Shown: positions 16,517 to 45,100 of the stretch, in pieces
How positions within the stretch are numbered: the stretch's first letter is position 1
Layout of the letters: the number at the start of each line of letters is the position of its first letter
DNA from: an uncultured Bacteroidaceae bacterium
GTDB lineage: Bacteria; Bacillota; Clostridia; Christensenellales; CAG-917
Direction: 5' to 3'
DNA: 64,000 nucleotides
Assembly (NCBI GenBank): GCA_964550635.1
Contig: CAZJZV010000008.1
Location: forward strand, 691-64,690
Position numbers and translations under genes: made by a program
Notes under the pieces: model-generated
Seen by the model: only the letters and a program-made list of their open reading frames with translations
What the model was told of the DNA's origin: nothing
Databases searched by the model: none

Positions 16517-16528
16517 TGTCGGTAACGT

Positions 16529-27978: not shown

Positions 27979-28007
27979 TCCCTTGGCAATCGCCAAGGGA
28001 TTTTTTT
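27979..28007 (+). terminator. rho-independent terminator of the M28 peptidase gene
   Basis: Stem TCCCTTGGC / GCCAAGGGA with loop AATC, followed by TTTTTTT. Confidence 0.8.
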
Positions 28008-28045
28008 ATTCTTGAAAACGAAACGTTACACGTTTTCTGTCAAAG

Positions 28046-28103
28046 TGCGGTTTGGGGACGGAGCAAAAATACGCACAACTGCGGTTTGGGGACGGAGCAA
28101 AAA
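28046..28103 (+). promoter_or_regulatory. perfect 24-nt direct repeat pair (candidate operator) upstream of the AbrB-like/ABC operon
   Basis: TGCGGTTTGGGGACGGAGCAAAAA occurs at 28046-28069 and again at 28080-28103 (34-bp period). The pair lies between a terminator and the AbrB-like gene start (28180). Confidence 0.45.
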
Positions 28104-28179
28104 GCGGTTGGCAATATTTTTAATTGACAAGAGCGGTGGGAAAAGTTATACTTGTTATACTGAAATGCGGAGGTGCGTT

Positions 28180-28407
28180 ATGCAAGGACCTGACGGTAGG
28201 CATCTTTTCGGCGTGGTGAAAGTCGGCGAAAAAGGACAAATTGTTATCCCGAAAGAAGCAAGAGATTTGTTTGGCATCAAACCCGGCTCTTCCCTTATGG
28301 TCGCGGCGGACAAGAACGGTATCGCCCTTTTCCACGAAGACGGGGAGATTTTCAAAGCGTTTTGTGCGGTGCTTGGGGGCGCGTATGGTGAAAATAAAAA
28401 CGATTGA
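28180..28407 (+). CDS. AbrB/MazE/SpoVT family DNA-binding protein
   Basis: ATG 28180 follows GGAGGTG. VKVGEKGQIVIPKEARDLFGIKPGSSLMV is the swapped-hairpin SpoVT-AbrB motif. About 75 aa. Confidence 0.75.
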   Translation: MQGPDGRHLFGVVKVGEKGQIVIPKEARDLFGIKPGSSLMVAADKNGIALFHEDGEIFKAFCAVLGGAYGENKND

Positions 28408-29104
28408 CCTGACGAAAACATACAAGGATAAGACAGTCGTCGACCGACTCAATCTTGAGATCTGGGACGGGGAAGTTTTCGCTTTGCTCGGACCAAACGG
28501 AGCGGGGAAAACTACGACCATAAAGATGCTTTGCGGGTTGACGGAGTCGACGTCGGGGGATGCGGAGTTGTGCGGATTTAGCGTGAGTCGCGAGCCTATC
28601 GAAGTCAAAAAGCGGATAGGGGTGTCCCCGCAGGAAACGGCGGTTGCAAAGAACCTGACCGCTATCGAAAATCTCGAAATGATTGCGGATATGACGGGCA
28701 AGTCTAAAAATGACGTGCGCGTGATATACGAGAAATTCCGTCTTGACTCACAGGGCAAGAAACTCGCAAAAAAATTGTCGGGCGGTTGGCAACGTATATT
28801 GTCAATTGCAATGGCGGTTTTGCCGGACCCTGAAATCGTCTTTCTCGACGAACCTACGCTCGGACTGGATATCGAAGCAAGGCGCGACCTTTGGGACGTC
28901 ATTACGGATATGAAAAAAACAAAAACCGTCGTGCTCACTACGCACTATCTCGAAGAAACGTATGCACTAGCGGATAGGATAGGCATCATCAAGGACGGCA
29001 AACTCATAGAGCTTGGCACGGGCGCGGAACTTATGGAAAAATACGGAGAAAACGGCTCGTCTTTCGACGACGTATATCTGAAAATCGTGCGGGGTGAAAA
29101 ATGA
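28385..29104 (+). CDS. ABC transporter ATP-binding protein
   Basis: Walker A GPNGAGKTT, signature LSGGWQR, Walker B VFLDEPT. Its start overlaps the AbrB-like gene by 23 nt. Confidence 0.9.
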   Translation: MVKIKTIDLTKTYKDKTVVDRLNLEIWDGEVFALLGPNGAGKTTTIKMLCGLTESTSGDAELCGFSVSREPIEVKKRIGVSPQETAVAKNLTAIENLEMIADMTGKSKNDVRVIYEKFRLDSQGKKLAKKLSGGWQRILSIAMAVLPDPEIVFLDEPTLGLDIEARRDLWDVITDMKKTKTVVLTTHYLEETYALADRIGIIKDGKLIELGTGAELMEKYGENGSSFDDVYLKIVRGEK

Positions 29105-29832
29105 ATTTCAAAGGCTTGCTCAAAAGAAATCTGATTGAATCCATGCGCGATCCGGTGACAATACTTCTTGCGTTGTGTTTCCCGGTGTTTTTGTTGATAT
29201 TGTTCTTCGCAATCGACAAGTCCGTCGATATGGATATATTGACCTTTTCACCCGCAGAGTTGACTCCCGGCGTCGTCGTATTCGGATATTCTATGCTCAT
29301 GATGACCGAAGGAAATCTGATATGCGCCGACCGCACGTCGTCGTTGTTTTCGCGGTTTCGCACTTTGCCTATGCGGACGATTGACTACGTGATAGCGTAC
29401 GCGCTACCTTTTCTTGCAATGGCTGTAGGGCAGTACGTCGTAACCTATGCGATAGCGTTTTGTTTCGGGCTTTGCTGGACTCCGCACGTATTCACGACTT
29501 TTCTATTGCTATTTCCGATAGCAATAATTTTCGTATCTCTCGGAATGCTCATGGGATTCACTTTGAATGCAGGGCAACTTGTCGGAATAGGCAACGGACT
29601 CATCACGGTGATTGCTATTTTGTCGGGTGCTTGGTTTCCTGTTGACGTCGTCGGCGGAGCGTTTGAAATCATCGCAACCGTATTTCCGTTTTACGATGCG
29701 GTCGCACTTTCAAGAGCGTTATTGCAGGGCGCGGAGTTTGAATGGTATCGGCTCTATATTCTTATCGCATACGCGGTCGCCCTTCCGACTCTATCCGTTT
29801 TCGTGACCGCAAGGCGACTTAAAAAGGCGTAA
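29101..29832 (+). CDS. ABC-2 type transporter permease
   Basis: 243 aa with about 6 TM helices. Its ATG overlaps the ATPase stop (ATGA). Confidence 0.75.
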   Translation: MNFKGLLKRNLIESMRDPVTILLALCFPVFLLILFFAIDKSVDMDILTFSPAELTPGVVVFGYSMLMMTEGNLICADRTSSLFSRFRTLPMRTIDYVIAYALPFLAMAVGQYVVTYAIAFCFGLCWTPHVFTTFLLLFPIAIIFVSLGMLMGFTLNAGQLVGIGNGLITVIAILSGAWFPVDVVGGAFEIIATVFPFYDAVALSRALLQGAEFEWYRLYILIAYAVALPTLSVFVTARRLKKA

Positions 29833-29881
29833 AGAGTTCATTTGCGTTGACTACTAATTCAAGGAATGGTACAATCGAAAT

Positions 29882-30358
29882 ATGAAAATTTTGTTCGTAT
29901 GTTCATCAAACGTGTGTCGCAGTCCGTACTGCGAATTTATGCTCCGTCGCATGGTCGCGGAGGACGACGTCCTTTCGCGCGCAGGGATAGAAATCTCGTC
30001 GTCGGCGGTGCTCAACCATAGCAAAGAAATCTTCCCCAAAGCAGTTGTTGCTCTCAAAAACGAAGGGTTTAGCGAAGAAGAATTGCTCCGCCACAAACCG
30101 TCGCACAAGTCGAACGCAAGGGATAGATTTGAAGAAGCGGATATCATCATCGGTATGTCGCGCTTTCACAAATTGCTCACTCCCGCAAGTTGCAGGAGCA
30201 AGTATATCACCCTGTCCGAAGTCGCGGAAGGTAAGTATACTCCGATCCCCGACCCGTGGCTCAAAACGTCGCAAGCGGATTACGACAAGTCAATGGCAGT
30301 CTTGAAGAGGTATCTCGACGAGTATTTCGTCAAACTCAAGGCGCAATTCGCAAAATAA
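29882..30358 (+). CDS. low-molecular-weight protein tyrosine/arginine phosphatase family protein
   Basis: N-terminal CX5R(S) P-loop (ILFVCSSNVCRSP) and a DP general-acid motif (IPDPW). 158 aa. Confidence 0.8.
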   Translation: MKILFVCSSNVCRSPYCEFMLRRMVAEDDVLSRAGIEISSSAVLNHSKEIFPKAVVALKNEGFSEEELLRHKPSHKSNARDRFEEADIIIGMSRFHKLLTPASCRSKYITLSEVAEGKYTPIPDPWLKTSQADYDKSMAVLKRYLDEYFVKLKAQFAK

Positions 30359-31525: not shown

Positions 31526-32154
31526 TAAGAAAATTAATATTTTCCACGTTTTCTTATTTTTTAGCAAATGCGCATTTTGAATATTGGCGCATATTTTGTG
31601 TATAAAATTGGTGAAAATATATAATTTGAAAATATTTGCGTATAAAAATCCGATTCTGCGGAGAAAATAAAAATTTATTAAAAATTTTAATTTTAGGTAT
31701 TGAGTTTTTTAATTCGCTGTGCTATTATTATAGAAACGAAGAAATTCGTTTATGGACCAACGAGCGCATTTATCGCGCTTGAAACACACCACTGCCACCG
31801 TGTTTGGCAAAACAAATCCGATGTGTTCGAGATAGAATGCATCGTTCCATCAGTGAGGGGACAATGGAAAGCACGACGAAAAAATATCGTCTGCAAAATT
31901 TTGACAAAAAAGTTAAAGTTACGTCGTCTATTTCTACGACGTGAGATTTATCGGGCGACCCGAGAGGAAATGTTTCTGCCCGAAAACCAAAAAGAAGTCA
32001 ACTCAATAACAACTATCGCCCACGTTCTCGGCGCATTTCTTGCGTTGTTTTGAACGATAGCGAAACGCGTGTATCGCATATAAGCGCCTAATGCGCACGC
32101 GAGCGCACATATAAGAGGCGCACAAAACCGAATATACAACAAGGAGATATATCA

Positions 32155-32796
32155 ATGGCAAAGAAAACCCCAAGGATCGAACGTAAGGCAGTTTATGAAA
32201 CCAACGTCGTTACGTTGTGTCGCGACCGTTATAAAGACAAACTCGACGAAGTCAATGCCGAACTCGAACGCGATAATGCTCAATTGAAAGTTTGTTTGGA
32301 GAAAGGTAAACTCTCAACCGACGAAGAAGAGAAGCGCGCGCTCGCACGCGAAGTGAAGAAGATTCGCGATAAAATCGAAATATTCAAAGGCAATGAATTT
32401 ATGTTCCGCGAAACCGTCGATCTTTTCGACAAGTTGGTTGATATCTTGGATTCGTTGATGATGAGAGAACAATATAGAATCATCGTCCGCAAAATTCCCG
32501 AGAAGAAATTGCCCGATCTCGTCAGAGATCTAAAGCGCGAAAAACTTAACGAACTCTTGATGGAACTCATCAGAGTGCTTGACGTGGCAAACAAAAAGTC
32601 AATGCTTTCGTCAAAAGAATTGAAAGAACAATTGCATACACGCGATATCGAAAATGCAAATTTCATGGAACGCAATGCACCCAACGAGGATGACATTGAC
32701 GCAATCATGGCGGAATTTGAATCGGATACCGCAACCGTTACGGCGACCGTTGTGAATGAAACGAGCAACGTGAACAACGTCGTAAATAATAACTAA
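32155..32796 (+). CDS. ESCRT-III superfamily-like (Snf7/PspA-like) helical protein, paralogue 1
   Basis: 213 aa and predicted all-helical. It has a basic N-terminus (MAKKTPRIERK) and an acidic C-terminus with NEDDIDAIMAEFESD. That tail resembles the Snf7-family acidic tail and the E. coli PspA segment LDEAMARFESFE (recalled from memory). AAGGAG RBS. Confidence 0.45.
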   Translation: MAKKTPRIERKAVYETNVVTLCRDRYKDKLDEVNAELERDNAQLKVCLEKGKLSTDEEEKRALAREVKKIRDKIEIFKGNEFMFRETVDLFDKLVDILDSLMMREQYRIIVRKIPEKKLPDLVRDLKREKLNELLMELIRVLDVANKKSMLSSKELKEQLHTRDIENANFMERNAPNEDDIDAIMAEFESDTATVTATVVNETSNVNNVVNNN

Positions 32797-32822
32797 AAAA
32801 TAATTAAGTGGAGGAATACACT

Positions 32823-33458
32823 ATGAGCAAAATCGACAAAGAACTCAAAAAAGAAGAAACCATCGCAAAGAGTTTGGCTACCATCATCGAGGCACGCGAA
32901 TCCGTTGAAAGCCTTGTGAAACAATACGACGAGTGGATCGACCAAGCGTTTGAACTCGGCGAAACGGAATATAGCGATCAACTCATCGCAGACCAAGTCG
33001 AGCTCGAAGAATTTTCGCGCAATCTTTCGTTCGTCGAAGTGAGAATTCGCGAATCCGCAGTGAGCGCAAGAGCTTTCGGAAAACTCAAATGCTTGCCCAA
33101 CGCGATGAAGTGCTGCAAGGATTTGTCCAGTGGTCTCAATCTTCCCAAAATCGGAAAGGATATGGTTGCATTCAGAAAATCTCTTGATAATGCACGCGCA
33201 TCTCTCAAAGATTTGAGAAGCGAAATGTCCGCCGACGACAAGTTCAGTAAGCTTGTGTTGAACGAAAAACTCGGCAGGAAGATTGATTCCAAAACGGCTC
33301 AAGCAATCGAACAAAAGAAACTTGCTCGCGAAGGACGCCTTGCACAAAAAGTTAGCAACAATTCGGTTGCTCCCGTCGCTTCCGGTATCGGAGCGGACGT
33401 TTCCGCAGGTATCGACGCTATCACCGCAATGATAGACGAAGAAAACAAGAAAAACTAA
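32823..33458 (+). CDS. ESCRT-III-like (CHMP2/Vps2-like) helical protein, paralogue 2
   Basis: 211 aa. ATG 32823 follows GGAGG. The segment AMKCCKDLSSGLNLPKIGKDMVAFRKSLDNA parallels human CHMP2A AMKGVTKAMGTMNRQLKLPQIQKIMMEFERQAE (recalled from memory). The C-terminal GIDAITAMIDEE helix is similar to the tail of paralogue 1. Confidence 0.55.
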   Translation: MSKIDKELKKEETIAKSLATIIEARESVESLVKQYDEWIDQAFELGETEYSDQLIADQVELEEFSRNLSFVEVRIRESAVSARAFGKLKCLPNAMKCCKDLSSGLNLPKIGKDMVAFRKSLDNARASLKDLRSEMSADDKFSKLVLNEKLGRKIDSKTAQAIEQKKLAREGRLAQKVSNNSVAPVASGIGADVSAGIDAITAMIDEENKKN

Positions 33459-33478
33459 CCTGACGAGGAAGAACAAAG

Positions 33479-34753
33479 ATGGCAGATTCAATCAAAGAGT
33501 CCTACGTAGCACTCATTGAAATCTATAATCAACATCGCACTTTGGGGGACAGTGCATCCGCTTTGCGCATTGCAAACGAGATCATCAAAATCGCAAGATC
33601 TCAATGCGCAAGAGACGATCTTCCGAAGCAAGTGAAAGATTACTATGCGTCAAGTTCCACGCCCATCAAAGAGTGGGTTGCGGGCATGAACGTTGCGCCG
33701 TTGCAACAAAAGTCGAATGCAAACAATCCGTCCGAAGACAAAATAAAGTCTACGGACTGGTTCGGCGCGGATATACCCAAACTCACTTTGCGCGACGTAG
33801 CAGGATTGCAACCGCTCAAAGACGAGTTCACCGTGAACGTCTTGGCGCCTATGTCTCCAAAATATGCTCCTATCTATCGGAAGTATAGAAAGGAAGTCGG
33901 CTTGCAAATCTTGATGTACGGCCCTCCGGGATGCGGAAAAACGCATATCGTCAAGTGCTTGGCGGGTACTCTCGGTTGCAAAATCGCGGTCGTTCAAGTG
34001 AAAGACGTCATGGCGAATCTCGTCGGCGACGGCGCGAAAATCATAGCGGAGATATTCGAACAAGCCAAAAAGTTCGACAAATGTATCATATTCTTCGATG
34101 AAATCGATGCAATCGCCGCAAGCCGTGACGACGACGAAAGTCGCCATACGAAAGAGCAGTTGACGACGTTGCTCACGAATATGGACGGGTTCACTTCATC
34201 CACGAAACCCAATCAAATTCGTATCATCATCGCGGCAACCAATCGTCCGTGGGTACTCGATAGCGCGGTTAAGCGCGGTGGACGTTTCGACACTCAAATC
34301 TACGTCCCGCTCCCCGATTTCGAGGCGCGTGCAAGACTTATCGAGCTTGCTCTCGGGAAGGACGAGAAAGTCAAAGACCGTATCGACGTCCCCTGCGACG
34401 ACGACGTGACTATTGAATGGCTTGCAGAGCGATTTGAGGGCTATTCGGGCGGCGATATTAAGGCGATCTGCAAACAGATTATCAACAGACCGCTCAAACG
34501 TGAAATCGACGCATTGCGCACAACCGGTCAGGTTGTGAGCGATCGTATAACTCGGGAAGATTGCGAGTTCGTGATGAAACGCTACATCAATTCTATCACC
34601 GACGAAATGTTGTTCAGTTACGACGCCTACGCCGCCAATATGGACCTTGCAGAATATCTTGCGCTTTACGAGCAAAAGGCAAGAGAAGACGAGGCAAACG
34701 GTATTCCGCTTCCTGCGCACGTGCAACGTTGGCTCGACGATATGGACAACTAA
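33479..34753 (+). CDS. Vps4-like (meiotic-clade) AAA ATPase with N-terminal MIT-like helical domain
   Basis: Walker A GPPGCGKT and Walker B [37 protein letters not shown] is nearly identical in pattern to Vps4 [37 protein letters not shown] is also present. The N-terminal roughly 75 aa is helical with no TM. Confidence 0.8.
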   Translation: [424 protein letters not shown]

Positions 34754-34763
34754 AACGTACCTG

Positions 34764-35705
34764 ATGGGAACGAACTTTGACCAAAAACTGAAAAACGCTT
34801 ACGTTGCGGCAAAATCGTACGCGACGCGCGGAGATGCAGTAAACGCACGAAATTGCGTGCTTGAATGCATGGAGTCTTTGCTTGAATTGTACAAAATCAC
34901 AAAGAGTCCGTCCGAGCGTGCAAAGATATACGCCAAAGTTGTCGAGTTCAAAAATATTTCTTCCGAACTCTACAAGAACGGCGTGAACCAAAAGGTTAAA
35001 GCGTGGTTTTGCATTGCGGAAACCGCCAAGAAAGAAGCGCCGACCGAAAATAAGCGCGGTGCGACTTCGGACGATATGCTTTGGACGGAAAAGGTTTTTC
35101 GCAACAACTGTTCGTCCGTAATGTCAATCCGTTGCTCACTGCGGAACGGTGAGTGCTTTAGCGGGACCGGATTTAGCATATCCGAAAACGGCTATCTGTT
35201 GACGAATCACCATGTGGTGTACGACGAAAACAACGATGAGTATTGCAAAATCATATACGCTACTCCGTTCGGACAGTCGAAATCGTATCAAATAGAATTG
35301 ATCGACGCGGACGAAAAGAACGACGTTGCGCTTTGCAAATACGATCCGACCGAGATGGACGGAGTTACGGCAGTCAAACGCATTGACGACTACGAAAGAG
35401 TGTCTCAAGGTATGGGAGTGTTGTCGATAGGCAACGGACTTTCCATGGGACTTGCTCCGATAAGCGGTATAATCAAGTTCACGAAAGGGACTCTCGTCAC
35501 CACCGTACCGTTGAATAAGGGCGACTCCGGTTCGCCGGTGTTCAACCCCGACGGCGAATGTATCGGCATCAATTGCTCCACTACCGCAGAAGTTATTCGC
35601 GGAAATCACGTATGTGAAGCAGTGGGCATATCCAACGCAACGCCTATGTGCACCATCGATAAACTGCTTGATAAGTGGTGCGCAAAATACGACATACAAT
35701 TATGA
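34764..35705 (+). CDS. MIT-like domain fused to a trypsin-fold (S1/HtrA-like) serine protease
   Basis: The catalytic triad is readable: His in LLTNHHVV, Asp in NDVALCKY, Ser in NKGDSGSPVF. The N-terminal 75 aa (AKSYATRGDAVNARNCVLECMESLLELYKITKSPSERAKIYAKVVEFKNISSELYK) parallels helices 1-3 of the Vps4 MIT domain. Confidence 0.7.
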   Translation: MGTNFDQKLKNAYVAAKSYATRGDAVNARNCVLECMESLLELYKITKSPSERAKIYAKVVEFKNISSELYKNGVNQKVKAWFCIAETAKKEAPTENKRGATSDDMLWTEKVFRNNCSSVMSIRCSLRNGECFSGTGFSISENGYLLTNHHVVYDENNDEYCKIIYATPFGQSKSYQIELIDADEKNDVALCKYDPTEMDGVTAVKRIDDYERVSQGMGVLSIGNGLSMGLAPISGIIKFTKGTLVTTVPLNKGDSGSPVFNPDGECIGINCSTTAEVIRGNHVCEAVGISNATPMCTIDKLLDKWCAKYDIQL

Positions 35706-35712
35706 GGTTAAT

Positions 35713-37308
35713 ATGATACTAGAAAAAATCCGCGACCTATACGTTCAGGCGCGCGAACTAGCAAAAACGGGTAATAATTCCAATAGCCTTATCGTGATAA
35801 ACAATATCACGGAAATTTCTAACTACGTAAAGGAACTTTATGAGCAGAGTACCAATATGGAGCGCATAAAGTGCAGAGCGCAATACGAGGGTTTTGACAA
35901 CGTCGTCAATATCATCAAAGTTTGCGGACTAAAGGATGAAAGAGTAAGGGCGTTTTTCGGGCTTGCACCGTCATCCGCGCACGCTCCGTCGTTCTCCGAT
36001 ATATTGAACGGCAACGTTCCTCAAACACCTCAAAATGCGGGTTCTAACACGGCAAAACCGAGTGCAAACGGTGTTGGCGCACCTGTCGCAAAAAGCAAAA
36101 AGCCCGCCAATCAACCGAAAATCGGCGCCGTTGCATCGGGAGCTGATAGCACTTTCGACGACGGTAAAATAAATCCTAAATACACCCCCGATAGCCTTGA
36201 CGACTTCATAGGTCAAGAGCGTGTGGTTAGGGAACTGAAACGCGAAATCAAAATCGCGAAAACAAACGGACGTCATAACCTTGACAATATCCTGTTGTTC
36301 GGCAATCCCGGACTCGGGAAAACCACTCTTATGAAATTGATTGCGGCGGAGTTGGGCGCGGAATACGAGCCTTTCGACTGCTCGCAAATGGGCAACACGC
36401 AACAAACGTTGAAGAAGATGCAAAGCTTTCTCATCCGCGTGTCCAAAATCAATAAGCCCGTCGTCATCGCATTCGATGAAATACATATGTTGAGTCGCGA
36501 ATTGCAGTCCGCACTTTTGACATTGCTCAACGATAGAGTGTTCGTGTCGCCGCCCGACTTGAACGGTAATATCAAACGAATACCGATTGAAAACTTCACT
36601 TTCATCGGCGCGACGACCAACGACGAAGGCGTCCTGCCCACGATAAAGAACCGTTGCTTGGGACTCACGTTCCAACTTGTCGACTACACGAACGACGAGC
36701 TCAAACGTATATATAGGAATAAGGTCGCGTCCAAGGGCTTGACCATATCCGACGACGCAATCGAAGTTTGTATTCCGAGAAGTCGCGGTGCAATCCGCTA
36801 CGTCAATTCCTTTGTCGACGGACTCGATAAGGCGCTCTATAACGACGACGGTATGCGTACCTCCTTCCATATCGACCTCGACGTCGCTCTCGCATACTTT
36901 GAGAAGAAAGGCATCGACCCCATGGGGCTCACCGATAAGGACCTTGAAATCCTGCATACCCTCGAAGAAACGGACGGTATGGGCGTGGATGTTCTCGCCG
37001 CAAGAGTCGGCTTGGATTCGAAAAAGTATCAATCAGAGTACGAAAAATATCTCATCAAGATAGGGTTCATCGACGTGAACGGCAAAGGTCGCACTCTTAC
37101 GGATAGAGCATTGCGCTATCTCAACGCAACGGGCGGGGATGATGACGGCGAAGTCGCACCCGATTGCCCCGACGAAACCGACAACAACGGCGGTTGCGAC
37201 GATTCTACCATCGACACAACCCCCGAAACGGCCGAACAAGATCAACCAGAAACCTCTTCGGACAACGACGTCCCGAAAGACATCATCGACGACCTATTCG
37301 GCGACTAA
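35713..37308 (+). CDS. MIT-like domain fused to a RuvB-type AAA+ ATPase with an acidic C-terminal tail
   Basis: FIGQERVVRELKREIKIAK...ILLFGNPGLGKTTL (compare RuvB FIGQE...LL.GPPGLGKTTLA), Walker B VIAFDEIHML and sensor FIGATTN. The winged-helix C-domain (GLTDKDLEILHTLEE...YEKYLIKIGFIDVNGKGRTLTDRALRYL) follows the RuvB domain III pattern. The N-terminal 70 aa is helical and MIT-like. The tail ends ...DVPKDIIDDLFGD. Confidence 0.7.
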   Translation: MILEKIRDLYVQARELAKTGNNSNSLIVINNITEISNYVKELYEQSTNMERIKCRAQYEGFDNVVNIIKVCGLKDERVRAFFGLAPSSAHAPSFSDILNGNVPQTPQNAGSNTAKPSANGVGAPVAKSKKPANQPKIGAVASGADSTFDDGKINPKYTPDSLDDFIGQERVVRELKREIKIAKTNGRHNLDNILLFGNPGLGKTTLMKLIAAELGAEYEPFDCSQMGNTQQTLKKMQSFLIRVSKINKPVVIAFDEIHMLSRELQSALLTLLNDRVFVSPPDLNGNIKRIPIENFTFIGATTNDEGVLPTIKNRCLGLTFQLVDYTNDELKRIYRNKVASKGLTISDDAIEVCIPRSRGAIRYVNSFVDGLDKALYNDDGMRTSFHIDLDVALAYFEKKGIDPMGLTDKDLEILHTLEETDGMGVDVLAARVGLDSKKYQSEYEKYLIKIGFIDVNGKGRTLTDRALRYLNATGGDDDGEVAPDCPDETDNNGGCDDSTIDTTPETAEQDQPETSSDNDVPKDIIDDLFGD

Positions 37309-37331
37309 AAAACCAAAGGGAGAGATTACAA

Positions 37332-38147
37332 ATGAAACAAACTAAAATCAGAACAAAAATCGACTTGTTGAAAGCACTCGACAACCTTACAAAAGTCGAT
37401 AACGAGTATTTGCCTGTCAATTCAGACAAGTATAAAAAAGTGAAAGAACACAAAGATCTGATACAACTTATCGCTACCGGTTTGCCAAAAACGGCGGATA
37501 TAAGCGATTTGAGTTCGCTTGACTTCGGCGAGCAGTCGCTTGAAGAATACGTAAAAAACAACAGCGTCGAAACAGTCGAAAAAAGGCTCATCTCGATTGA
37601 GAGCGACATAAACACAAGAACGTCGCAATATGCCAATACGTATTTTGAAAAAAAAGAAGCTGATAAAAAGAAAGAAGACGTTGTAATTTTTGGCGAAGAT
37701 CTTATTGAGGTTTATGATACAATGCAAAGTCGGAACCATAAGAGGCTCATTGCCTTTGCCGTAGTTTTCATAGTATCCTCTGTAATTTTCGCGGCGGCGG
37801 CAATATGCTTGTTGATTGATTCAATAAAATGTTTTTTGGGAGAGAGCGGAGTGACGATTTGTTCCGCTATTTGCACCGTCGCAGGTGTGGCAGATTTTAT
37901 AAACGGTGGAGCGTTTTCTGTATATGAACGCATTGATGACAAGAAAAAGACCAAGGTCAACAATGAAGCCGCAAAATCATTAAAAACTAAAAACCCCGCT
38001 ATTGCTTTTAGGGAAGTAAAGAATAGTATTATTATTGACGGCAAAGCGTGCGGTGTTATTATTAATAAAACGGTGAACAATGGAGGGGAAAATACAAATG
38101 AAAATAATGAAAAAACTGGGCAAGATATTTCCACAACGAAAGAATAA
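37332..38147 (+). CDS. membrane protein with a central 2-TM hairpin, function unknown
   Basis: ATG 37332 follows AAGGGAGAG. 271 aa with a helical N-domain, then LIAFAVVFIVSSVIFAAAAICLLI and VTICSAICTVAGVADFINGGAF. No family recognised. Confidence 0.55.
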   Translation: MKQTKIRTKIDLLKALDNLTKVDNEYLPVNSDKYKKVKEHKDLIQLIATGLPKTADISDLSSLDFGEQSLEEYVKNNSVETVEKRLISIESDINTRTSQYANTYFEKKEADKKKEDVVIFGEDLIEVYDTMQSRNHKRLIAFAVVFIVSSVIFAAAAICLLIDSIKCFLGESGVTICSAICTVAGVADFINGGAFSVYERIDDKKKTKVNNEAAKSLKTKNPAIAFREVKNSIIIDGKACGVIINKTVNNGGENTNENNEKTGQDISTTKE

Positions 38148-39597
38148 GAAGACGGAAGTTGAGTCTGCACAACAGGATAAAAATCTAGTTGGCGGTGAAG
38201 ATAACGGCATCACTTTGAATGCGGTAGACACAGCGCAAACGAATGACGACTACTCTTGTCTTCGTCAGGTTGAAGATTATCAAGACGACCAATCAATAAG
38301 CGAAAGCGATAAAAAAACTGACGGCGTCGCAGATTTTTCTATAGTCGATGACTCTACTGCTACTTTGGATGATGAACAACAAACTGATAGAAATACACAA
38401 GCAGCAAATAGCAGGTCGAAAGAAAACAACAAAGAGAACTCGTCATCACAGCCCAGCAATAATTCTAATGGTGACATTACTAATAGTGTTGTAATAGGGG
38501 GCAACCTCTTTGGATTGGCGCTGAATATTGTTCGAAATGGTGTTTCTAAACTGTGGGTAAAAAATAAAATTAAAGAGTCGGATAAGAAGAACGAAGTTGA
38601 GCGTGCGAAGCTTGAGACTCGAATAGATAAATATTTGCTTATTAAAATTGCGGAGAGCAAAGAAGAAATAATAAAAGAAATCAAGGGTGAATTAGATCAG
38701 CAAATAAAACACCATAATGATTTTGAGTCGGCAATTAAAGCGACGGTTGCTAATCTGTCGGATGCTTGGGGAAGATTTTCTGACGACATAATAAAACGAC
38801 TTGAAAAAGTCGAAAATTTGGATTCTCAAGTTGCTAACGCAAGTAAAATCTTAGAAGAGCACAAAGTAAGAATTGATGCATTAGAAGGTCGGCAAATAGA
38901 ATTCATGGAATATGCAATGGATTATATTAATTCATTGAAAAATTCTTTGGAAGAAGTCAGCAATAAAACTAACGAACTAGAAGAGGAAGTAAGACGATTA
39001 AAAGAAGAACTGGAACGGATAAAAAAACTTATCTCGTCGCAAAAGCTCGACCCTCGCTATGAAATTTGCCCTCGATGCGGATCATACCATTCGTTTGACA
39101 CATACAAAAGAGGTGAAGAAGGAGAAAAACCATATTACATATGTGCAGTCTGTGGCCGAAAAGATAATGATGACGAAGATAATATTCAAATTATAAAGGA
39201 CGATAAGAGTATAAATTCGGAACTTCACGTTCTAGCATCATCGGTATTGGATGATTCGATGAACAAACATGGTTTAACGAGTATAAAACGCGTGTTAGTC
39301 AAAAATAATATACAAAAAATTGGCACATCACAAGGTGGGAGCGCAATTAACAAATATTATGGAAAATTGGAGGTTTTTTCTCTCAGCAATCCAAATGAGA
39401 AAGGTGAACCACATTATACATTGGGCAAAGGGCTGTTTGATTTTAGCAATAATCGGAAATGGATAAAACTATATGGAATGAAGTATGTGAAAACAATTGA
39501 AGACGGATGTTTTAAGGGCATAGAAAGAGGAAAAAGAGAAGCATTTTGGAAAAAATACGGCTTCACACTTAAGCGCGAAGATAAGTATTTTTGCTGA
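38098..39597 (+). CDS. coiled-coil protein with zinc-ribbon (CxxC...CxxC) and C-terminal globular domain, function unknown
   Basis: ATG 38098 lies 9 nt after GGAGGGG and overlaps the previous gene by about 50 nt. It has an acidic, low-complexity N-region and a long heptad-like stretch (LEEVSNKTNELEEEVRRLKEELERIKKL). The zinc ribbon reads CPRCGSYH...CAVCGRKD. The C-terminus is faintly LRR_5/BspA-like. Confidence 0.5.
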   Translation: MKIMKKLGKIFPQRKNKKTEVESAQQDKNLVGGEDNGITLNAVDTAQTNDDYSCLRQVEDYQDDQSISESDKKTDGVADFSIVDDSTATLDDEQQTDRNTQAANSRSKENNKENSSSQPSNNSNGDITNSVVIGGNLFGLALNIVRNGVSKLWVKNKIKESDKKNEVERAKLETRIDKYLLIKIAESKEEIIKEIKGELDQQIKHHNDFESAIKATVANLSDAWGRFSDDIIKRLEKVENLDSQVANASKILEEHKVRIDALEGRQIEFMEYAMDYINSLKNSLEEVSNKTNELEEEVRRLKEELERIKKLISSQKLDPRYEICPRCGSYHSFDTYKRGEEGEKPYYICAVCGRKDNDDEDNIQIIKDDKSINSELHVLASSVLDDSMNKHGLTSIKRVLVKNNIQKIGTSQGGSAINKYYGKLEVFSLSNPNEKGEPHYTLGKGLFDFSNNRKWIKLYGMKYVKTIEDGCFKGIERGKREAFWKKYGFTLKREDKYFC

Positions 39598-39610
39598 TTA
39601 AGGAGGAAAT

Positions 39611-40246
39611 ATGGATTTGTTGACAATAGTTTTGATAGTGGGACTATCGTGTATGACAATGGCGTTTGTATGTGCCTTATGTGTGTGTGTTAAGCAGCAT
39701 TGGAGTTTCGAATGCGAACAAAACGCATTGGCATCTGCACTCAATAATAAGGCTCGGCAAAAAGATTGCGCCAAAGGTGTTGCTCATTTGACTGCTGATG
39801 AATTGATCGCGCAAAAAAACGAAGAAATTGCATCTCTCAATGATATGATAGCAAAATATGAAGAAGAACATAGGCGCAACGTCGAGGTGGAAAAGAAGCT
39901 AGAAAAGCACTACGGCGATGCAGGCATTTCTTTAAGCAATTTGATTGGATATACCGAAGACTGTAGAAAAACGCTTAAACATGATTATATTGAAAGAGGA
40001 GTAGAATATTCTTGTGATGATATTGATTATGTTTTAAAAGCAATTTTGAGAGAAGAAATTTGTATTGTTGAAAGATTGCCCAATTATTATCCACAAATAG
40101 GGGAGAAAATTGATTGCGCGTGCATGGAAGAAGTCGGGGAGAAAAATTATGGTTACATAACTCAAATTGTGGAACCCGGGAAAAAATGTGGAACTTTCGT
40201 GGTTCGCAAAGCAAAAGTAAAAACAGAAAGGAGAATACAAGAATGA
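39611..40246 (+). CDS. N-terminally membrane-anchored coiled-coil protein with GrpE-like C-terminal domain
   Basis: TM helix LLTIVLIVGLSCMTMAFVCALCVCV. Coiled coil EEIASLNDMIAKYEEEHRRNVEVEKKLEK. The C-terminus (IGEKIDCACMEEVGEKNYGYITQIVEPGKKCGTFVVRKAKVKTE) parallels the GrpE beta-domain (VGKPFDP.LHQAVMQVE...V.E.LQKGYKL.DRVIRPSMVKV). It lies immediately upstream of, and overlaps, the Hsp70-like gene. Confidence 0.4.
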   Translation: MDLLTIVLIVGLSCMTMAFVCALCVCVKQHWSFECEQNALASALNNKARQKDCAKGVAHLTADELIAQKNEEIASLNDMIAKYEEEHRRNVEVEKKLEKHYGDAGISLSNLIGYTEDCRKTLKHDYIERGVEYSCDDIDYVLKAILREEICIVERLPNYYPQIGEKIDCACMEEVGEKNYGYITQIVEPGKKCGTFVVRKAKVKTERRIQE

Positions 40247-42039
40247 AACAAATTATTACGATAGGCATCGACATTGGCACTCAATACTGCAGTGCAGGTT
40301 ATGTTTTGGATAATGAATATCATCAAATTGATTTTGCCAACTGTCCGTATGGAATTCCGACAACGGTATGTTTAAGAAGCGCCGATGCCAATGAAAAAGA
40401 AAACATTGTAGAGCAGCATGATGGCAAAAAATACGTAGTGGAATCAGGCACAAATGCGGTTGATAAAATAGATACAGACTATTCTAATGGGAGCGTATAT
40501 ATATTATCGCCTTCACAATCGATAAAAACGCTCATGAGAAAAAATGTGAAACAAGTAAAGTTATTTAATAATATCACGTCACTAGATGAAGATTTCGAAA
40601 CTAAAGAATTAGTATATAACTTTATTTGGCATGTAGTAGATAAAATAATAGATAAATTCCGCGCTAATGGAATTAATTTAAACGATTATAAATTAGTCGT
40701 CAATATGGGCTATCCGGGGAAAGATGAGTTAAATTCCAACGAAGAAGAAAACTACAAGAATGAGATTGCACGCATAGTAGGCAGTGCGTTTAATTTAAAG
40801 GTAGACGGAGCAAATGTAGAGGTTAAAGCTATAAGCGAAGCAGCGCTAGCGGCAGATTTGCTAAAAAATATCTGCTTGGAAAATAATGGATCGCCGAAAC
40901 AAAAAGTTTGTACAATTGACGTGGGTGCTGGAACTACCGATTTGGCTTTTTTGAAATTGGATGAAAAAACACACAAATATTTGTGTGAAGGTCAAACGAC
41001 ATGCAATTTTGGGGGGAAAAGCATCGATCTAGTTCTCGGGGATCAAAGCCTGGAATGGGAACGAGAAAATGGAGGCATTCATAAAGGCGAATTAAATCCC
41101 GCTCACCTTCGTCCGGATACTATAGCAAAACGCAAAAAATGGATTTTCACCGGAAATGCCGAAGATGGTAAGATAACTGGTTATGATAATATATATCTCA
41201 GTAAGAAAATTGGTGAGTATATTGAAAACGATACTATTGTTACAGAAGAACGTGATTTGGGCACTTTAAAAACCAAATTTGAAAAATTTATAGAAGAAAT
41301 TACAATAGAAGTAAAAAATAATGAGGCAGACGTCGCATTTGTTTTATTGGGCAATTCCAGTCATTTGTCTTATATCAGAGATATGATTGAGGAAACAGTG
41401 AAGCGTAAATTGAGCAATCTAATGGTGAAGGTAGACATTTCATTTTTGGAAGATGCATTAAAGAACACGCCGTTGAATTATATAAACAATTCAAATTTTA
41501 TTGCCAGAGCGGCTGCCGGTTATGAAAATGATATGATAACTACTAATTGTTATGCATTTAGTTATTATAACAAAGAAAAGAATGAAAATGGTTATAAAAT
41601 AATTTCGAGCAAGGGAAATCTAAAAGGATCTTATTATGACACCGAGGCGGACTATATGGTTAATAAGGAAAACAACGAATGTGATTTCGAGGTTGGCGGA
41701 ACAGTGTATAGCATTAAAATACTAGAAAGCGAAGCAATGCAAAAAGCAAATGTTGGCAAGGATTTTTATTATTTAAAGGGGAGCGTACAACCTAAAAACG
41801 TAGACATTGATAAAGAAAATATAAAATATTATAAGCCAACACTAAAGGGAAAGGGCTTGAGATACAACGTAGGGTGCAGTATTGACGATCAGGGAAAATT
41901 AAGTATATGCGTCTTCGCTAATGATAATGACAAAAAGACAAGCGAGGAGAGAAAGAATTTTTTGGAAAAAGCGATTAAAACGGCAGACGCACACGGTAAT
42001 CTTAGCCGTTGGTTCGAATTAAAAAATTACAAAGTATAA
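40243..42039 (+). CDS. divergent Hsp70/actin-fold ATPase (DnaK-like nucleotide-binding domain plus unrelated beta-rich C-terminal domain)
   Basis: Phosphate-1 motif ITIGIDIGTQYCSAG and phosphate-2 motif CTIDVGAGTTDLAFLKL. 598 aa. Its ATG overlaps the upstream stop (ATGA). It is Asn/Lys/Ile-rich. Confidence 0.65.
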   Translation: MKQIITIGIDIGTQYCSAGYVLDNEYHQIDFANCPYGIPTTVCLRSADANEKENIVEQHDGKKYVVESGTNAVDKIDTDYSNGSVYILSPSQSIKTLMRKNVKQVKLFNNITSLDEDFETKELVYNFIWHVVDKIIDKFRANGINLNDYKLVVNMGYPGKDELNSNEEENYKNEIARIVGSAFNLKVDGANVEVKAISEAALAADLLKNICLENNGSPKQKVCTIDVGAGTTDLAFLKLDEKTHKYLCEGQTTCNFGGKSIDLVLGDQSLEWERENGGIHKGELNPAHLRPDTIAKRKKWIFTGNAEDGKITGYDNIYLSKKIGEYIENDTIVTEERDLGTLKTKFEKFIEEITIEVKNNEADVAFVLLGNSSHLSYIRDMIEETVKRKLSNLMVKVDISFLEDALKNTPLNYINNSNFIARAAAGYENDMITTNCYAFSYYNKEKNENGYKIISSKGNLKGSYYDTEADYMVNKENNECDFEVGGTVYSIKILESEAMQKANVGKDFYYLKGSVQPKNVDIDKENIKYYKPTLKGKGLRYNVGCSIDDQGKLSICVFANDNDKKTSEERKNFLEKAIKTADAHGNLSRWFELKNYKV

Positions 42040-42062
42040 TATATGTGTTTAATTAAGCAAAA

Positions 42063-42088
42063 AACCGTCCGAGAGGGCGGTTTTTTTG
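42063..42088. terminator. strong hairpin terminator ending the nine-gene operon (also usable on the opposite strand)
   Basis: Stem AACCGTCC / GGGCGGTT (8 bp, one G-U pair) with loop GAGA, preceded by AAAAA and followed by TTTTTG. It starts 24 nt after the stop at 42039. Confidence 0.75.
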
Positions 42089-42136
42089 TGGGGGGAAATG
42101 GTGGGGGAAAGGGGAATCCTTTTCCTGTTTTTTTGT

Positions 42137-42189: not shown

Positions 42190-45100
42190 TTATTCGTTGT
42201 AGTCCTCGTATTTGTCGCGTTTTTCGGTGATTGCTTCGGTGTTGGTTTCGGCAAGCACTTTGTCTTTCGCGGGTTTGCGGTACTTCTTGACGAAGAACAC
42301 GATTACGACGGCGATGGTTGCGACTGCGATGATGATCGAAGGAATCATCCAAGCAAGGTTGACGAGATTGAAGGAACTTGCTTCGGGAGTTTCGGTGGTG
42401 TCGTCGACTTTGGTTTCGGTGTCACCGGTTTGGGATGCGGGTTTGACTTCGCGCACTTTGACGGTGGAAGCAAGGGTGCCTGCATCTGCTTGCGCCTTCA
42501 TATTGTCGTAGACTTCTTCGGTCACGGTTTCGAAGGTGATAGCGTCGAACATTGCGTAACCGCTTGAGAGTTTGGTTTCGTCGTCCGCGTCGTAGTCACC
42601 GAGTTGGAGTTTGAGAGTTGCGGAAGTGACCTTATCGTCGAGAGTCTTGACGTAGAAGGTGTATTCCGTCCAGCCTTCAGCCTTGATACCTTCGAAGACG
42701 AGCGGATTTTCGCTATCGTTTGCGGAGCCGAGATAGAACTCAACGCTTGCGCCTGCGCCGGTTGCTTTGAACGTACGCACGTACACGCTTACCTTATAGA
42801 AGGTTTCCGCATTGAGAGTGTAACTGTTGCTGGTGTAGAGATAAGAGCTGGGCGCGGTGTTGTTGATGACAAGGAAGTTCTTTCCGATGACGGAAGAAAC
42901 GTCGTTGCCGTTCGCATCCTTCATTGAGAGCAAATCGCTTGCGGAGATGTAGTTTGCCTTCATATCCGCGTACATTTCGCGTTTTTGGAGAATGGTTTCG
43001 ATTTCCGCATCGGTCTTGCCGGGGTAGGTTGCCTTTGCGCTATCGATGTCGCTTTGCTCGATCTTGTAGTTGCTTTGCTTATAGGTCTTGCCGAAGAGAG
43101 AGACGGTTTGTCCCATTTCGCTCAAGATGTCCTTGTAGAGATCGTCTTCAAGGTCTGCGGAGTCGATATCGTGTTTGGGAAGTGCGCTTGCATCCGCATA
43201 GATGACGCCGCCCTTGGTGTCGGAAGCGGATTGTTCGGTGTCTGCGGATCCCGACCAACCGGAAGGAGTGGAGAGTTCGCTTCTGGACGCTACGTTATCG
43301 GAAGCGGTGTCGAAACCGTCGGTAAGGTAGGTGATCTTTCTATCGACGTTATTGTTGAGAGAAAGCGCGTTGAACTCATCGTCGGTCATGGTGGTGAGAG
43401 TGACGTTGTCGAACAAGACGATACCGGAAGACGCTTCGTCCGCGACGTCGCCGAGATCGCCGGAGATTGCTTGGTCGTAGCCAATGCCGAGGCGGAGTTT
43501 CAAGGAAGAAACGCTGGTCAAACCGACTTGGATATAGAAGGTGTATTCAGTCCAATCGGTGGAACCGACGGTCTTGACTACGAAGTTGGTGTTTTCTGCG
43601 ATACTACCGCTCGAACCGCCGGTGAGATAGATACTGAAAGTGGTTGCTTCCAAGGTCTTAACCCACACGCTGAGTTTGTAGTTGTTGTTTGCGGAAGCGG
43701 AGAAGGTGCCGGACGCAAAGGAGCGGGTGTACTTCTTGCCGTTGAGTCCTGCAAACGCAAGGACGTAAGGTGCGCCGATGCGTTCCGCATTCTCGAAGTA
43801 GGTGTCGTCTTCCGCACCGTAGAGAGTGTTGAAGGACGTTGCGACGGAGTCGCCGAACAACGCTTTGATTTGTTCGCTTGCGTCGTAGTAGTTGTCGTTG
43901 TCCGCTTGTTTGTCGAGTTTTACGATACCTGCAACGAGATTTGCATCGTCCTTGTAGGTTTCTTTGTAGGTGTTGGTGTCGTCCGTGTCGTCGCCGTTGG
44001 GCTTGTAGGTGGAGTCGTTGATGGTCCAGTTGGAAGGCACGCCTGCGTAGTTATTCTTCGCAAGGTCGCCTTGAGCGACGTTACCGTCCGTCCACTTGGT
44101 GTCCGAAACGTTGAAGTTGGAGAAACTGCCGTTGGTGAAGGACGGGGAGGTGGATGCCGCGGAAGACGCAAGGCTTACTGCCTTGACGGTGTTGCCGGTG
44201 GAGACGTCCGCATAATCGTCGTATTCGATTTCGGTCATGCTGATATTGGACACGAACGCTACGCCGTTTGCAAGGGTGGAAGAGGACCAACGATTGCCGG
44301 TGCCGTAGGTGATGCGCAAAGAGAGGTTTTGTGCTTCGAGTTCGTTGCCTTTCACGTAGAAGGAGTATTCCTTCCAAGTGGTGGTTTCGACGTTGTCATC
44401 GTCGTAGGTGGAAGTGTTGATGAGAGTGAAGGAAGACTTGTCGTTGCCTTCGCCGTCAACGAGACAGATATAAACGCCGGAAGTGGACTTGATACCTACC
44501 GTCTTAACCCAGAGAGAGATGCGATAAGTGCCGTTCTTGGAGACCGCAAATTCGTCGGTTTCAAAGAGGAAGTAGGAGTCCGCCGCGTTGGACTTGAACA
44601 TAAGGGCGCGTTCGCTTTCGATTGCGTAAGGGGTGCCCGGGTGTTCGACGCCGTATTGAGTGAAGTTTGCATCTGCGGCAAGGCTGACTACGCCTGCGGT
44701 AACGTCGACGACGGGAAGAGTATCGTCGTTGCCGATTTCGTCGAGAAGGCTACTTGCAGAGAAGCCTGCGGGGGTGCCGAGAGTGTTGTTGTCGTAATCC
44801 GCCGCATTGTCCGAAACGTTTTGGAAGTTTGCGGAGATTGCGCTACCGTCGAAAAGGTTGACGGTGGAGAGGTCCACTTTTGCGTATCTTGCGGAGCTAT
44901 CGCTTTCAAGGTCGACTTCGTAGTCGGTGAGTGCGCCTACGTTCGTCCACGCGTCTTCGGTGATTTCTGCAAGGTTGACTTCGTCAAAGAATGCCCAACC
45001 GGTTGCGAAAGTGCCGTTGGATTTGTAAGTGGTTTGGTTTTCGTTGAATTTGGTTGCGCTCTCGTATTCGGTATAGGTCACCGTGGAGTTGTCGTAGGTG

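Follow-up and report, generated by a model that had tools for sequence, protein, structure and literature searches.

The window considered here is a stretch of 64,000 nucleotides (positions 691 to 64,690 of contig CAZJZV010000008.1, GenBank assembly GCA_964550635.1) deposited as DNA of an uncultured Bacteroidaceae bacterium and assigned by GTDB to the Clostridia (Christensenellales, CAG-917). On its + strand lies an operon of nine open reading frames (g1-g9, 32155-42039), and the same genes are called on public contigs that encode identical proteins. The cluster is real and conserved, and the libraries searched contain no description of it; certainty about its function is low. A sequence-only reading of the window had treated the nine genes as one operon; as regards conservation they are not one unit, in that g1-g5 form a conserved core and g6-g9 are a fast-evolving, exchangeable cassette. 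The core encodes two small proteins, a classical AAA ATPase, a trypsin-like serine protease and a RuvB-like ATPase, and its organization resembles the recruitment of MIT-domain enzymes by ESCRT-III.

Organization of the operon

The nine genes are separated by only 7-26 nucleotides or overlap each other. The ATG of g7 at 38098 stands behind a GGAGGGGA ribosome-binding site and the stop codon of g6 ends at 38147, giving an overlap of 50 nucleotides, and an ATGA (40243-40246) is common to g8 and g9. A non-coding leader of 629 nucleotides (31526-32154, + strand) precedes g1 and contains a sigma70-like site at 31700-31728 (9 of 12 matches, with a TG element). The operon is followed by a terminator region (42063-42126, + strand), in which a hairpin, CCGTCC...GGGCGG, is followed by seven T residues (about 42066-42088), and a second terminator-like stem-loop (42104-42126) likewise by T7. 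The packing, the overlaps, the leader of about 630 nucleotides and the hairpin terminator reported earlier were confirmed in full from the reading frames and terminator calls, and judged from this tight layout the operon is a single transcription unit. The GC content is 46-48% in g1-g6 and drops to 35-37% in g7-g9, the surroundings having 46-51%. No Rfam family was found in the leader or elsewhere across 30-43 kb. A remnant of the NusG-like gene that lies 5' of the operon in three other loci (L164-166) was sought in the leader and not found.

Conservation and mobility of the core

The order g1-g2-AAA-(protease)-RuvB is found in at least nine independent lineages, where the identity of the AAA protein is 58-72% and that of g2 falls to 22%. 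Colinear cores are present in loci L164-166, L156, L161, L158, L086, L083-085 and L175/176, the last of these having been found via a g2 relative of 22% identity that matches Snf7 colinearly. There are also variants of the core: L087 lacks the protease gene, and in L163 this gene is displaced. The co-conservation of neighbouring genes, which the sequence-only reading had put forward as a check, holds for g1-g5.

Some copies are associated with mobile DNA. L164, L165 and L166 (about 6700-21400 in each) share an identical element, which stands in three different chromosomal contexts: beside rhaA/dnaK/dnaJ, beside a gene for a transglutaminase-core protein, and beside rpoB/rpoC. This element consists of genes for a tyrosine integrase, a NusG paralogue, g1-g5, a 258-amino-acid transmembrane protein, an 848-amino-acid protein with a borderline DO-GTPase2 match, proteins of 580 and 346 amino acids, and a 1666-amino-acid Flg_new protein. 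An integrase gene adjoins the core in L085, TraG/VirD4 is encoded near L087 and L168, and PcfJ and SNF2 genes are found near other copies. The copy in the window and its strain variants occupy a fixed chromosomal site, near which no integrase, type IV secretion system or giant operonic protein was seen. When an empty insertion site was sought via the flanking MGMT protein, all contigs that extend far enough to include it carried the island, and no att-like direct repeats bound the island.

The g2 family is narrow: a set of 1.84 billion proteins contains 111 clusters of it at 50% identity, mostly of about 200-230 amino acids, and a metagenome scan with this family yielded only six loci. Scanning of viral contigs gave nothing with the g2 family and only distant AAA proteins with the AAA alignment. 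The profile scan of genome contigs with the AAA alignment, which had picked generic AAA motifs, gave only FtsH- and CDC48-like loci. By tblastn, g3 had no match at 1e-30 among PLSDB plasmids or INPHARED phages. The system is restricted to uncultured Clostridia of the gut and rumen, among which its distribution is patchy.

The core enzymes

The product of g3 (424 amino acids, 33479-34753, + strand) comprises an N-terminal three-helix bundle, a linker, a single classical AAA cassette and a helical C-terminus. It matches Pfam AAA (PF00004) at 1.8e-36 together with AAA_lid_3, and has the Walker A motif GPPGCGKT, the Walker B motif DEID and the second region of homology KRGGRFD. The last motif is of the CDC48/PAN/FtsH type. 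The best 60 matches listed in PDB belong to the CDC48 group (p97/CDC48/VAT, AFG2 and human homologues, Rix7 and NVL), one entry being deposited as 'vesicle-fusing ATPase', and Vps4 is not among them; the nearest solved relatives of the AAA domain are p97/CDC48 D2, AFG2, Rix7 and VAT. The NCBIfam CdvC model gives 136.9 bits against a cutoff of 650 and is outscored by the CDC48, PAN and FtsH models, and no Pfam match to Vps4_C (PF09336) was found in g3. The sequence-only assignment of g3 as a Vps4-type ATPase is therefore upheld as to the order of domains and not as to the clade of the ATPase, which is nearest to CDC48/p97.

In the g4 product (313 amino acids, 34764-35705, + strand), an N-terminal helical module of about 90 residues is followed by a trypsin-like serine protease (Pfam Trypsin_2, 2.9e-17) with intact active-site motifs, TNHHV at 147 and GDSGSP at 253. 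Seven of the eight homologues checked retain both the His and the Ser motif, the pattern of the His motif being unmatched in L163. The g5 product (531 amino acids, 35713-37308, + strand) combines the same kind of N-terminal module with a RuvB-like AAA+ ATPase and its winged-helix domain, and closes with an acidic tail whose last residues are DIIDDLFGD. It matches RuvB_N (PF05496; 6.9e-21, 75.1 bits, cutoff 27) and RuvB_C (PF05491; 7e-13, 48.8 bits, cutoff 24.7). Both the trypsin fold and the RuvB type had been predicted, and both are supported by Pfam; as the NCBIfam RuvB model gives 155.7 bits against a cutoff of 282, which is below the orthologue level, g5 is taken as a RuvB paralogue. The operon has no ruvA, and neither a ruvA nor a ruvC neighbour appears in the gene list of the window. 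The tail of g5 (37150-37308) is long, acidic and probably disordered, and DI(I/V)D(D/E)(L/M)F-like endings occur in four of nine homologues. Because these endings resemble the DIDAI tails of g1 and g2, g5 could be a client of the system as well as a recruit. From their motifs, g3, g4 and g5 look active.

The small proteins g2 and g1

Both small proteins had been read as ESCRT-III/PspA-like. For g2 (211 amino acids, 32823-33458, + strand), several weak signals converge on such an assignment. The protein is predicted to form a long alpha1-alpha2 hairpin and helices alpha3-alpha5, followed by a low-confidence, probably disordered linker and a conserved C-terminal helix, IDAITAMIDEENKK. The AlphaFold2 model has a medium mean predicted local distance difference test score (pLDDT) of 69.6, with helices at residues 3-44, 48-88, 91-99, 107-124, 128-136, 139-146, 156-179 and 194-209. 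This arrangement follows the ESCRT-III pattern, in that a hairpin of two helices of 41-42 residues is followed by shorter helices and a flexible C-terminal region. In a Foldseek search of the model against PDB, 14 of the 15 top matches belonged to the ESCRT-III superfamily (CHMP2A/3, CHMP1B, Snf7, PspA, Vipp1 and Asgard ESCRT-III). The Foldseek comparison that had been proposed as a check, carried out on the models of g2 and the N-terminal part of g3, agrees in ranking for g2, with E of at least 0.1 throughout. The root-mean-square deviations for g2 are inflated, because open and closed conformations differ.

Comparisons at the sequence level point the same way. When 69 members of the g2 family were scanned singly against Pfam, Snf7 was matched by eight (best E 3.4e-7) and PspA_IM30 by four, and these were the two commonest Pfam families. 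P0222, a relative of g2 with 22% identity from the same type of operon, has a colinear Snf7 match of 18.8 bits against a cutoff of 27.3. In PDB, the g2-family profile has in-register matches to CdvB (E 0.049) and CHMP2A (E 0.052), with unrelated helical proteins scoring equally well or better, and its hhalign alignment with CHMP2A spans 95 colinear columns at E 0.0017 with a probability of only 15%. Individually weak, the independent methods (Pfam on relatives, profile against PDB, hhalign and Foldseek ranking) agree in the same register. Judged from sequence and model together, g2 probably belongs to the ESCRT-III/PspA superfamily as a very divergent member, although it lies outside the formal family limits and no one signal is significant alone.

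The acidic C-terminal helix claimed for g2 proved strongly conserved in every locus. Behind the variable linker, the tail IDAI(T/A)xMI(D/E)EExKK is nearly unchanged in all loci compared, while the rest of g2 falls to about 30% identity. A near-invariant tail on a drifting protein is a pattern typical of a docking peptide.

The g1 product (213 amino acids, 32155-32796, + strand) has a basic N-terminus, a central motif Y..I.K.IPEKKLP and an acidic DDIDAIMAEFE tail. Its homologues are found in at least 10 loci, always directly 5' of g2. No Pfam match to Snf7 or PspA was found in 11 members of the g1 family, and hhalign gave a probability of 5% against the g2 family and 0.2% against CHMP2A, so that the ESCRT-III/PspA-like assignment does not extend to g1. 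Some loci have a tandem pair of g1-like genes (L175, 6598-7948; L087, 8078-9312), both with an IPE(K/H)(K/E)L-type central motif. This suggests, as far as the motif tells, that the g1 component has been duplicated, as ESCRT-III genes often are.

N-terminal modules of g3, g4 and g5

The three core enzymes had been described as each carrying an MIT-like module at the N-terminus. The modules of g4 and g5 (about 90 amino acids) are clearly homologous (hhalign probability 97%, E 7e-11), and a combined profile of the two aligns with the N-terminal module of g3 over all three helices (59%, E 9e-5), which indicates moderate homology. The model of the g3 module is a confident three-helix bundle (pLDDT 87, residues 3-76). 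In Foldseek, its best two-way matches include the katanin p60 N-domain, VPS4A MIT and SKD1 MIT (TM-score 0.66-0.73) as well as VPS4B MIT (0.55). A TPR-like motif, N..GD...AI, is also present in the g3 module, and the modules match consensus TPR and designed helical repeats. The N-terminal module of g5 has a weak Pfam Snf7 match (E 8e-4), which is taken as helical noise because this module aligns with those of g4 and g3 instead. The earlier description therefore stands in that the three enzymes share related helical N-terminal modules; their identity as MIT, which Pfam does not recognize, does not follow. The modules appear, from sequence and model, MIT-like in form and position.

The exchangeable 3' cassette

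A hypervariable cassette of low GC content (35-37%) extends from the C-terminus of g6 to g9 (38014-42115, + strand), as delimited by the GC profile and by comparison of strains. Between the window and a strain variant (L170), the flanks are 95% identical and g1 to the N-terminal part of g6 92%, while the segment 38014-39066 has no alignable counterpart in the variant and the remaining cassette is 83% identical. In another variant, L167, the identity of the g9 protein is only 36%. A sigma70-like site with a TG element, TTGACG-16-TATTAT (38035-38062), lies exactly at the breakpoint of the cassette, and accordingly the cassette may bring its own promoter. In L168, the order RuvB-like, g6-like, g7-like, g8-like and g9-like is kept at 24-31% identity. 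More widely, membrane proteins recur among the downstream genes, an Hsp70-like gene is found downstream in L168 and L156 and more weakly in L161 and L087, and another set of loci has a large protein of the Zn-ribbon family.

The g6 product (271 amino acids, 37332-38147, + strand) is predicted to be a membrane protein in which some 140 cytosolic residues at the N-terminus precede a hydrophobic hairpin at about 144-205. It was expected to have two transmembrane helices; in the hydropathy scan a strong hydrophobic segment is accompanied by a weaker one, and two are seen in the proteins that occupy this position in L164 and L163. It is weakly similar to the protein at this position in L168. Compared with the counterpart in L170, residues 1-234 are 78% identical and the sequence beyond them is replaced. 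The N-terminus of the g7 product (499 amino acids, 38098-39597, + strand) is acidic and of low complexity; it is followed by a coiled coil (about 165-320), a zinc ribbon of the form CxxC...CxxC (about 329-365) and finally a C-terminal domain. The coiled coil and zinc ribbon ascribed to it are borne out, with weak Pfam matches. Homologues at the same position are found in L170 (67%, C-terminal half), L167 (43%) and L168 (24%, E 2e-10).

The partner of g9, g8 (211 amino acids, 39611-40246, + strand), begins with a transmembrane helix (6-24) and continues with a coiled coil; its C-terminal domain is conserved and recurs in a 482-amino-acid protein of L168 (E 2.5e-7). The membrane anchor of the supposed GrpE-like protein is thus seen, and its identification as GrpE is rejected: g8 has no Pfam match to GrpE (PF01025), a four-sequence g8 profile finds no GrpE in PDB, and hhalign against E. 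coli GrpE gives a probability of 0.2% and E 0.29, the aligned part being the C-terminal beta-domain. On the other hand, g9 (598 amino acids, 40243-42039, + strand) is a divergent ATPase of the Hsp70 superfamily, as proposed, with a nucleotide-binding domain at about 1-370 and then about 230 further residues. Alone, it has no Pfam or PDB match, and the assignment is confirmed with the family profile only. The best 60 PDB matches listed for a clean g9-family profile (A8) are Hsp70 nucleotide-binding domains (best E 2.4e-8), which span the phosphate-1 and phosphate-2 motifs and subdomain II. The best stretches of these listed matches end by about profile position 370, leaving the remaining 230 or so residues outside. 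A homologue of g9 with 36% identity (P0261) carries PF00012. Three candidate homologues picked by size were dropped, as the clean profile shows no demonstrable homology to them.

Neighbouring genes

Around the window copy, a MazE-type antitoxin gene followed by an ABC transporter pair lies 5' of the island (28000-29900, from the annotation of the identical contig L001/L172). Very large reading frames are present on the - strand of the window at 5096-9517 (1473 amino acids), 11709-15236 (1175 amino acids) and 42190-46671 (1493 amino acids). The last, which is convergent with the operon, appears repeat-rich on reading its translation, with an N-terminal signal or membrane segment and a C-terminal transmembrane anchor; being conserved at the same site in the strain variants, it is chromosomal and not part of the island. 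Genes of mobile or defence type also stand close to related loci elsewhere: a gene with a NADAR-DarT1 domain follows the L087 cluster (20584-21185), and genes for ClpP and a TraG/VirD4 coupling protein follow that of L168 (10854-14740).

Comparison with known systems

Of the Pfam families named beforehand for the nine proteins, AAA, Trypsin_2, RuvB_N and RuvB_C were found, HSP70 was found on a homologue only, and Snf7, PspA_IM30, MIT, Vps4_C and GrpE were not found. PADLOC, PHROGs and NCBIfam gave no system- or family-level match beyond generic domains, and full-text searches of the literature did not find this gene combination described. The claim of novelty is upheld to the extent that the cluster matches no entry of PADLOC, PHROGs, PLSDB or INPHARED and no described system in the literature searched. 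Since it is absent from these collections and confined to uncultured Clostridia, it has probably been overlooked.

The likeness to ESCRT-III/Vps4 lies in the architecture. The g2 protein has the helix pattern, the linker and a conserved amphipathic acidic terminal helix; g3 combines a three-helix bundle, a linker and a single classical AAA cassette; and the same kind of N-terminal module is present on two other enzymes, the protease and another AAA+ ATPase. Eukaryotic parallels for enzymes tagged in this way are calpain-7, spastin and katanin. On the other hand, g2 and the modules are below the Pfam thresholds for Snf7 and MIT, and the AAA protein is nearer to CDC48/p97, PAN and FtsH. The partners, a trypsin-like protease, a RuvB paralogue and an Hsp70-like ATPase, also differ from those of ESCRT-III/Vps4, the system is mobile and patchy in Clostridia, and neither ESCRT-I/II nor CdvA accompanies it. 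An interactome of MIT domains and their MIT-interacting motifs (MIM) is reported to link ESCRT-III with MIT-domain enzymes (PMC9477494). The ESCRT-III/Vps4 pairing has been placed in archaea and eukaryotes only (PMC11188069), and although bacteria have the ESCRT-III relatives PspA and Vipp1, a Vps4-like ATPase that would remodel them 'appears absent in bacteria' according to a 2025 review (PMC7619361). VPS4-like ATPases transferred to bacteria with a TPR-6TM partner, and occasional operons of PspA/Snf7 with AAA+ ATPases, have been reported by Ravi et al. (2024; PMC11237479), in which the architecture of the g1-g9 cluster is not described.

With PspA, Vipp1 (IM30) and LiaH, g2 shares a distant place in the same superfamily (PspA_IM30 matches in 4 of 69 relatives, top Foldseek matches) and a likely membrane-associated context. 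Unlike these, it is not accompanied by PspB/C/F, LiaI/F or Toastrack partners, it forms a narrow family of its own, and its operon also encodes an AAA unfoldase that bears a docking domain. The combination of an AAA ATPase with a serine protease recalls Ietas, and the AAA core of g3 matches the PADLOC IetA models at up to 7e-41. This match covers the generic AAA core only, the NCBIfam IteA model gives 116.3 bits against a cutoff of 510, and g4 has the trypsin fold, no subtilase being present. IetS is a subtilase, and we know of no Ietas locus with ESCRT-III-like, RuvB-like or Hsp70-like genes. Membership of Ietas was rejected on the IteA score and on the Trypsin_2 match of g4.

The variable-cassette logic is similar to that of the DO-GTPase/GAP1-N2 systems, which (PMC7159879) combine an Hsp70-family ATPase and a small partner with Zn-ribbon and transmembrane components in Firmicutes. 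The 848-amino-acid protein of L164 matches DO-GTPase2 just below the threshold (26.7 against 27 bits). In contrast, g7 has no match to a GTPase family and no P-loop on reading of its sequence, GrpE is undetectable, and no GAP1 family was found in any locus scanned. The cluster was not assigned to these systems, such Pfam matches being absent from the window. Kaur et al. (2020) report DO-GTPase/GAP1 systems with HSP70 and GrpE, and term searches of their paper found no core of ESCRT-III-like, AAA, protease and RuvB genes (PMC7159879). As for RuvAB, g5 has a full-length RuvB_N, the AAA core and the C-terminal winged helix, whereas it is below the equivalog cutoff, has an extra N-terminal module (about 150 amino acids) and an acidic tail, lacks a ruvA or ruvC neighbour and is found on mobile islands.

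Possible mode of action and alternative explanations

On the best reading, the cluster would work in the manner of ESCRT-III/MIT recruitment, as an analogue and not an orthologue of ESCRT-III/Vps4. The g2 protein, perhaps with g1, would polymerize at the membrane, and its C-terminal helix would serve as the docking peptide for the MIT/TPR-like N-terminal modules. The polymer would thereby concentrate the effectors, namely the protease and the RuvB-like DNA translocase, and the AAA ATPase would be the unfoldase that disassembles, resets or primes it. Sensing and specificity may be supplied by the exchangeable 3' cassette, which consists here of the membrane protein, the coiled-coil/Zn-ribbon protein and the membrane-anchored partner with its Hsp70-like ATPase, and which in other lineages may include the DO-GTPase-like protein and the giant surface proteins. 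Polymerization, membrane association, binding of tail to module, the division of roles and a function in defence are what we infer for the cluster. Envelope stress, membrane remodelling and anti-phage defence had all been proposed; the mobility of the system favours a role in conflict or in the life of a mobile element over housekeeping in envelope stress. We put at about 45% the probability of this reading as a whole, which makes the cluster a mobile, membrane-proximal multi-enzyme conflict system of uncultured gut Clostridia, acting in anti-phage or anti-plasmid defence or in competition between elements.

A number of observations weigh against this interpretation. No single homology test for ESCRT-III or MIT is significant for the window proteins themselves, and chance matches are easy for helical hairpins and three-helix bundles. 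The g2 protein itself matches neither Snf7 (PF03357) nor PspA_IM30 (PF04012) in Pfam at E up to 10, and its Foldseek matches have E of 0.1-0.4 and TM-scores of at most 0.62, with probabilities up to 0.99. The modules of g3, g4 and g5 have no match to Pfam MIT (PF04212) at E up to 10, and every structural match of the g3 module has E of at least 0.4, other helical bundles ranking equally high. As an ESCRT-III-like protein g1 is rejected, since profile comparisons tie it neither to Snf7 or PspA nor to CHMP2A or the g2 family, and g3 is rejected as an orthologue of Vps4 or CdvC in view of its CDC48-group relatives, its CdvC score far below the cutoff and the lack of Vps4_C. The pore loop 1 of g3 (residues 179-185, A-N-L-V-G-D-G) has no aromatic residue and is invariant or nearly so in 24 homologues, and such a loop is unusual for a substrate-threading classical AAA protein. 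A defence role has no direct support, in that PADLOC detects no system and only the AAA core resembles IetA; the genes neighbouring L086, L156 and L087 gave only generic SNF2 helicase matches in PADLOC. The model also leaves unexplained the giant proteins, predicted to lie at the surface or in the membrane, whose genes directly follow the core within its operon in most other lineages. They include an LRR_5 protein of 2341 amino acids (L083, 14257-21282), the Flg_new protein of 1666 amino acids (L164, 20069 onward), an MBG_3 protein of more than 959 amino acids (L175, 13952 onward) and a protein of 1210 amino acids with three transmembrane helices (L163, 9216-12848).

Alternatively, the resemblance to ESCRT-III and MIT would be noise of helical bundles, and the cluster would be a conflict system of an AAA unfoldase, a serine protease and a RuvB-like NTPase, loosely like Ietas. 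The small proteins g1 and g2 would then have nothing to do with ESCRT-III and serve as coiled-coil adaptors, as substrates or as inhibitors of the antitoxin kind; the modules would be TPR-like domains of a generic sort, for oligomerization or as adaptors, and neither a polymer scaffold nor membrane remodelling would be involved. The absence of Snf7, PspA and MIT matches in Pfam for the window proteins and the Foldseek E of at least 0.1 in all cases fit this explanation, as do the unrelated helical proteins that outrank CdvB and CHMP2A in the PDB search with the g2 profile, the IetA match of g3 at 7e-41, the matches of the modules to consensus TPR and designed repeats, and g1, which has no detectable homology to anything. 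It is rendered somewhat unlikely by the convergence of independent methods on ESCRT-III in one register, by the whole-protein architecture of g2, which with its linker and conserved terminal helix fits ESCRT-III, and, as to Ietas, by the IteA score of 116 against a cutoff of 510 and the lack of a subtilase.

Another alternative is that the cluster serves the mobile element itself or a surface apparatus and not defence, either remodelling membranes and pumping DNA for vesicle-like or conjugation-associated transfer, or taking part in the biogenesis of the giant adhesin-like proteins of the same operons. In the latter case the AAA and Hsp70-like ATPases would be chaperones for folding and export of the giant protein, and the protease would be a processing enzyme. 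TraG/VirD4, PcfJ and integrase genes adjoin the cluster, most lineages encode giant LRR_5, Flg_new and MBG_3 proteins in one operon with the core, and a RuvB-like motor for double-stranded DNA is present with membrane proteins. Archaeal extracellular vesicles are known to carry DNA between Sulfolobus cells, and early ESCRT components have been linked to vesiculation (PMC7619361). Nevertheless, the window copy and its variants stay at a fixed site with no integrase, type IV secretion system or giant operonic protein nearby, no component of a secretion system was detected among the nine proteins with Pfam or NCBIfam, and the speed at which g6-g9 are exchanged among nearly identical strains would be more typical of genes in an arms race, which makes this explanation clearly unlikely. 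A housekeeping module for envelope stress or membrane repair of the Psp/Lia type with extra proteostasis enzymes is highly improbable. The distant place of g2 in the PspA/ESCRT-III superfamily, the membrane proteins and chaperone-like ATPases, and the precedent of occasional bacterial operons of PspA/Snf7 with AAA+ (Ravi et al., 2024; PMC11237479) would agree with it, but the system is as patchy as the 111 clusters of g2 indicate, it is mobile with different insertion sites, its cassette is hypervariable, it is not obvious what a RuvB-like DNA motor would do in membrane repair, and the Pfam scan did not find PspB/C, LiaI/F or Toastrack partners.

Implications

A further claim, that the cluster is a true bacterial ESCRT-III/AAA-unfoldase machine in which a divergent ESCRT-III polymer recruits, through its C-terminal helix and an MIT-MIM-type code, an unfoldase, a protease and a translocase for double-stranded DNA, borne on mobile DNA and tuned by an Hsp70-containing sensor cassette, is tentative and on the doubtful side. 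If true, the ESCRT-III/Vps4 principle would have its first counterpart in bacteria, whether ancient or rebuilt by convergence from a CDC48-like ATPase, and such a polymer would for the first time be seen in use as a signalling platform in immunity or by a mobile element. An ESCRT-III-like protein and an AAA unfoldase with a docking domain in one conserved bacterial operon, this domain recurring on a protease and a DNA motor, would alter the picture given in reviews, in which the pair is restricted to archaea and eukaryotes. The origin and generality of the principle that a polymer tail recruits MIT-tagged enzymes could then be tested directly in bacteria, with a system that is small and portable. 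Should it turn out to act in defence, the cluster would represent a new mechanistic class, in which a membrane-polymer scaffold is combined with three NTPases and a protease, and the natural exchange of its cassette would be useful for studying how specificity is set.

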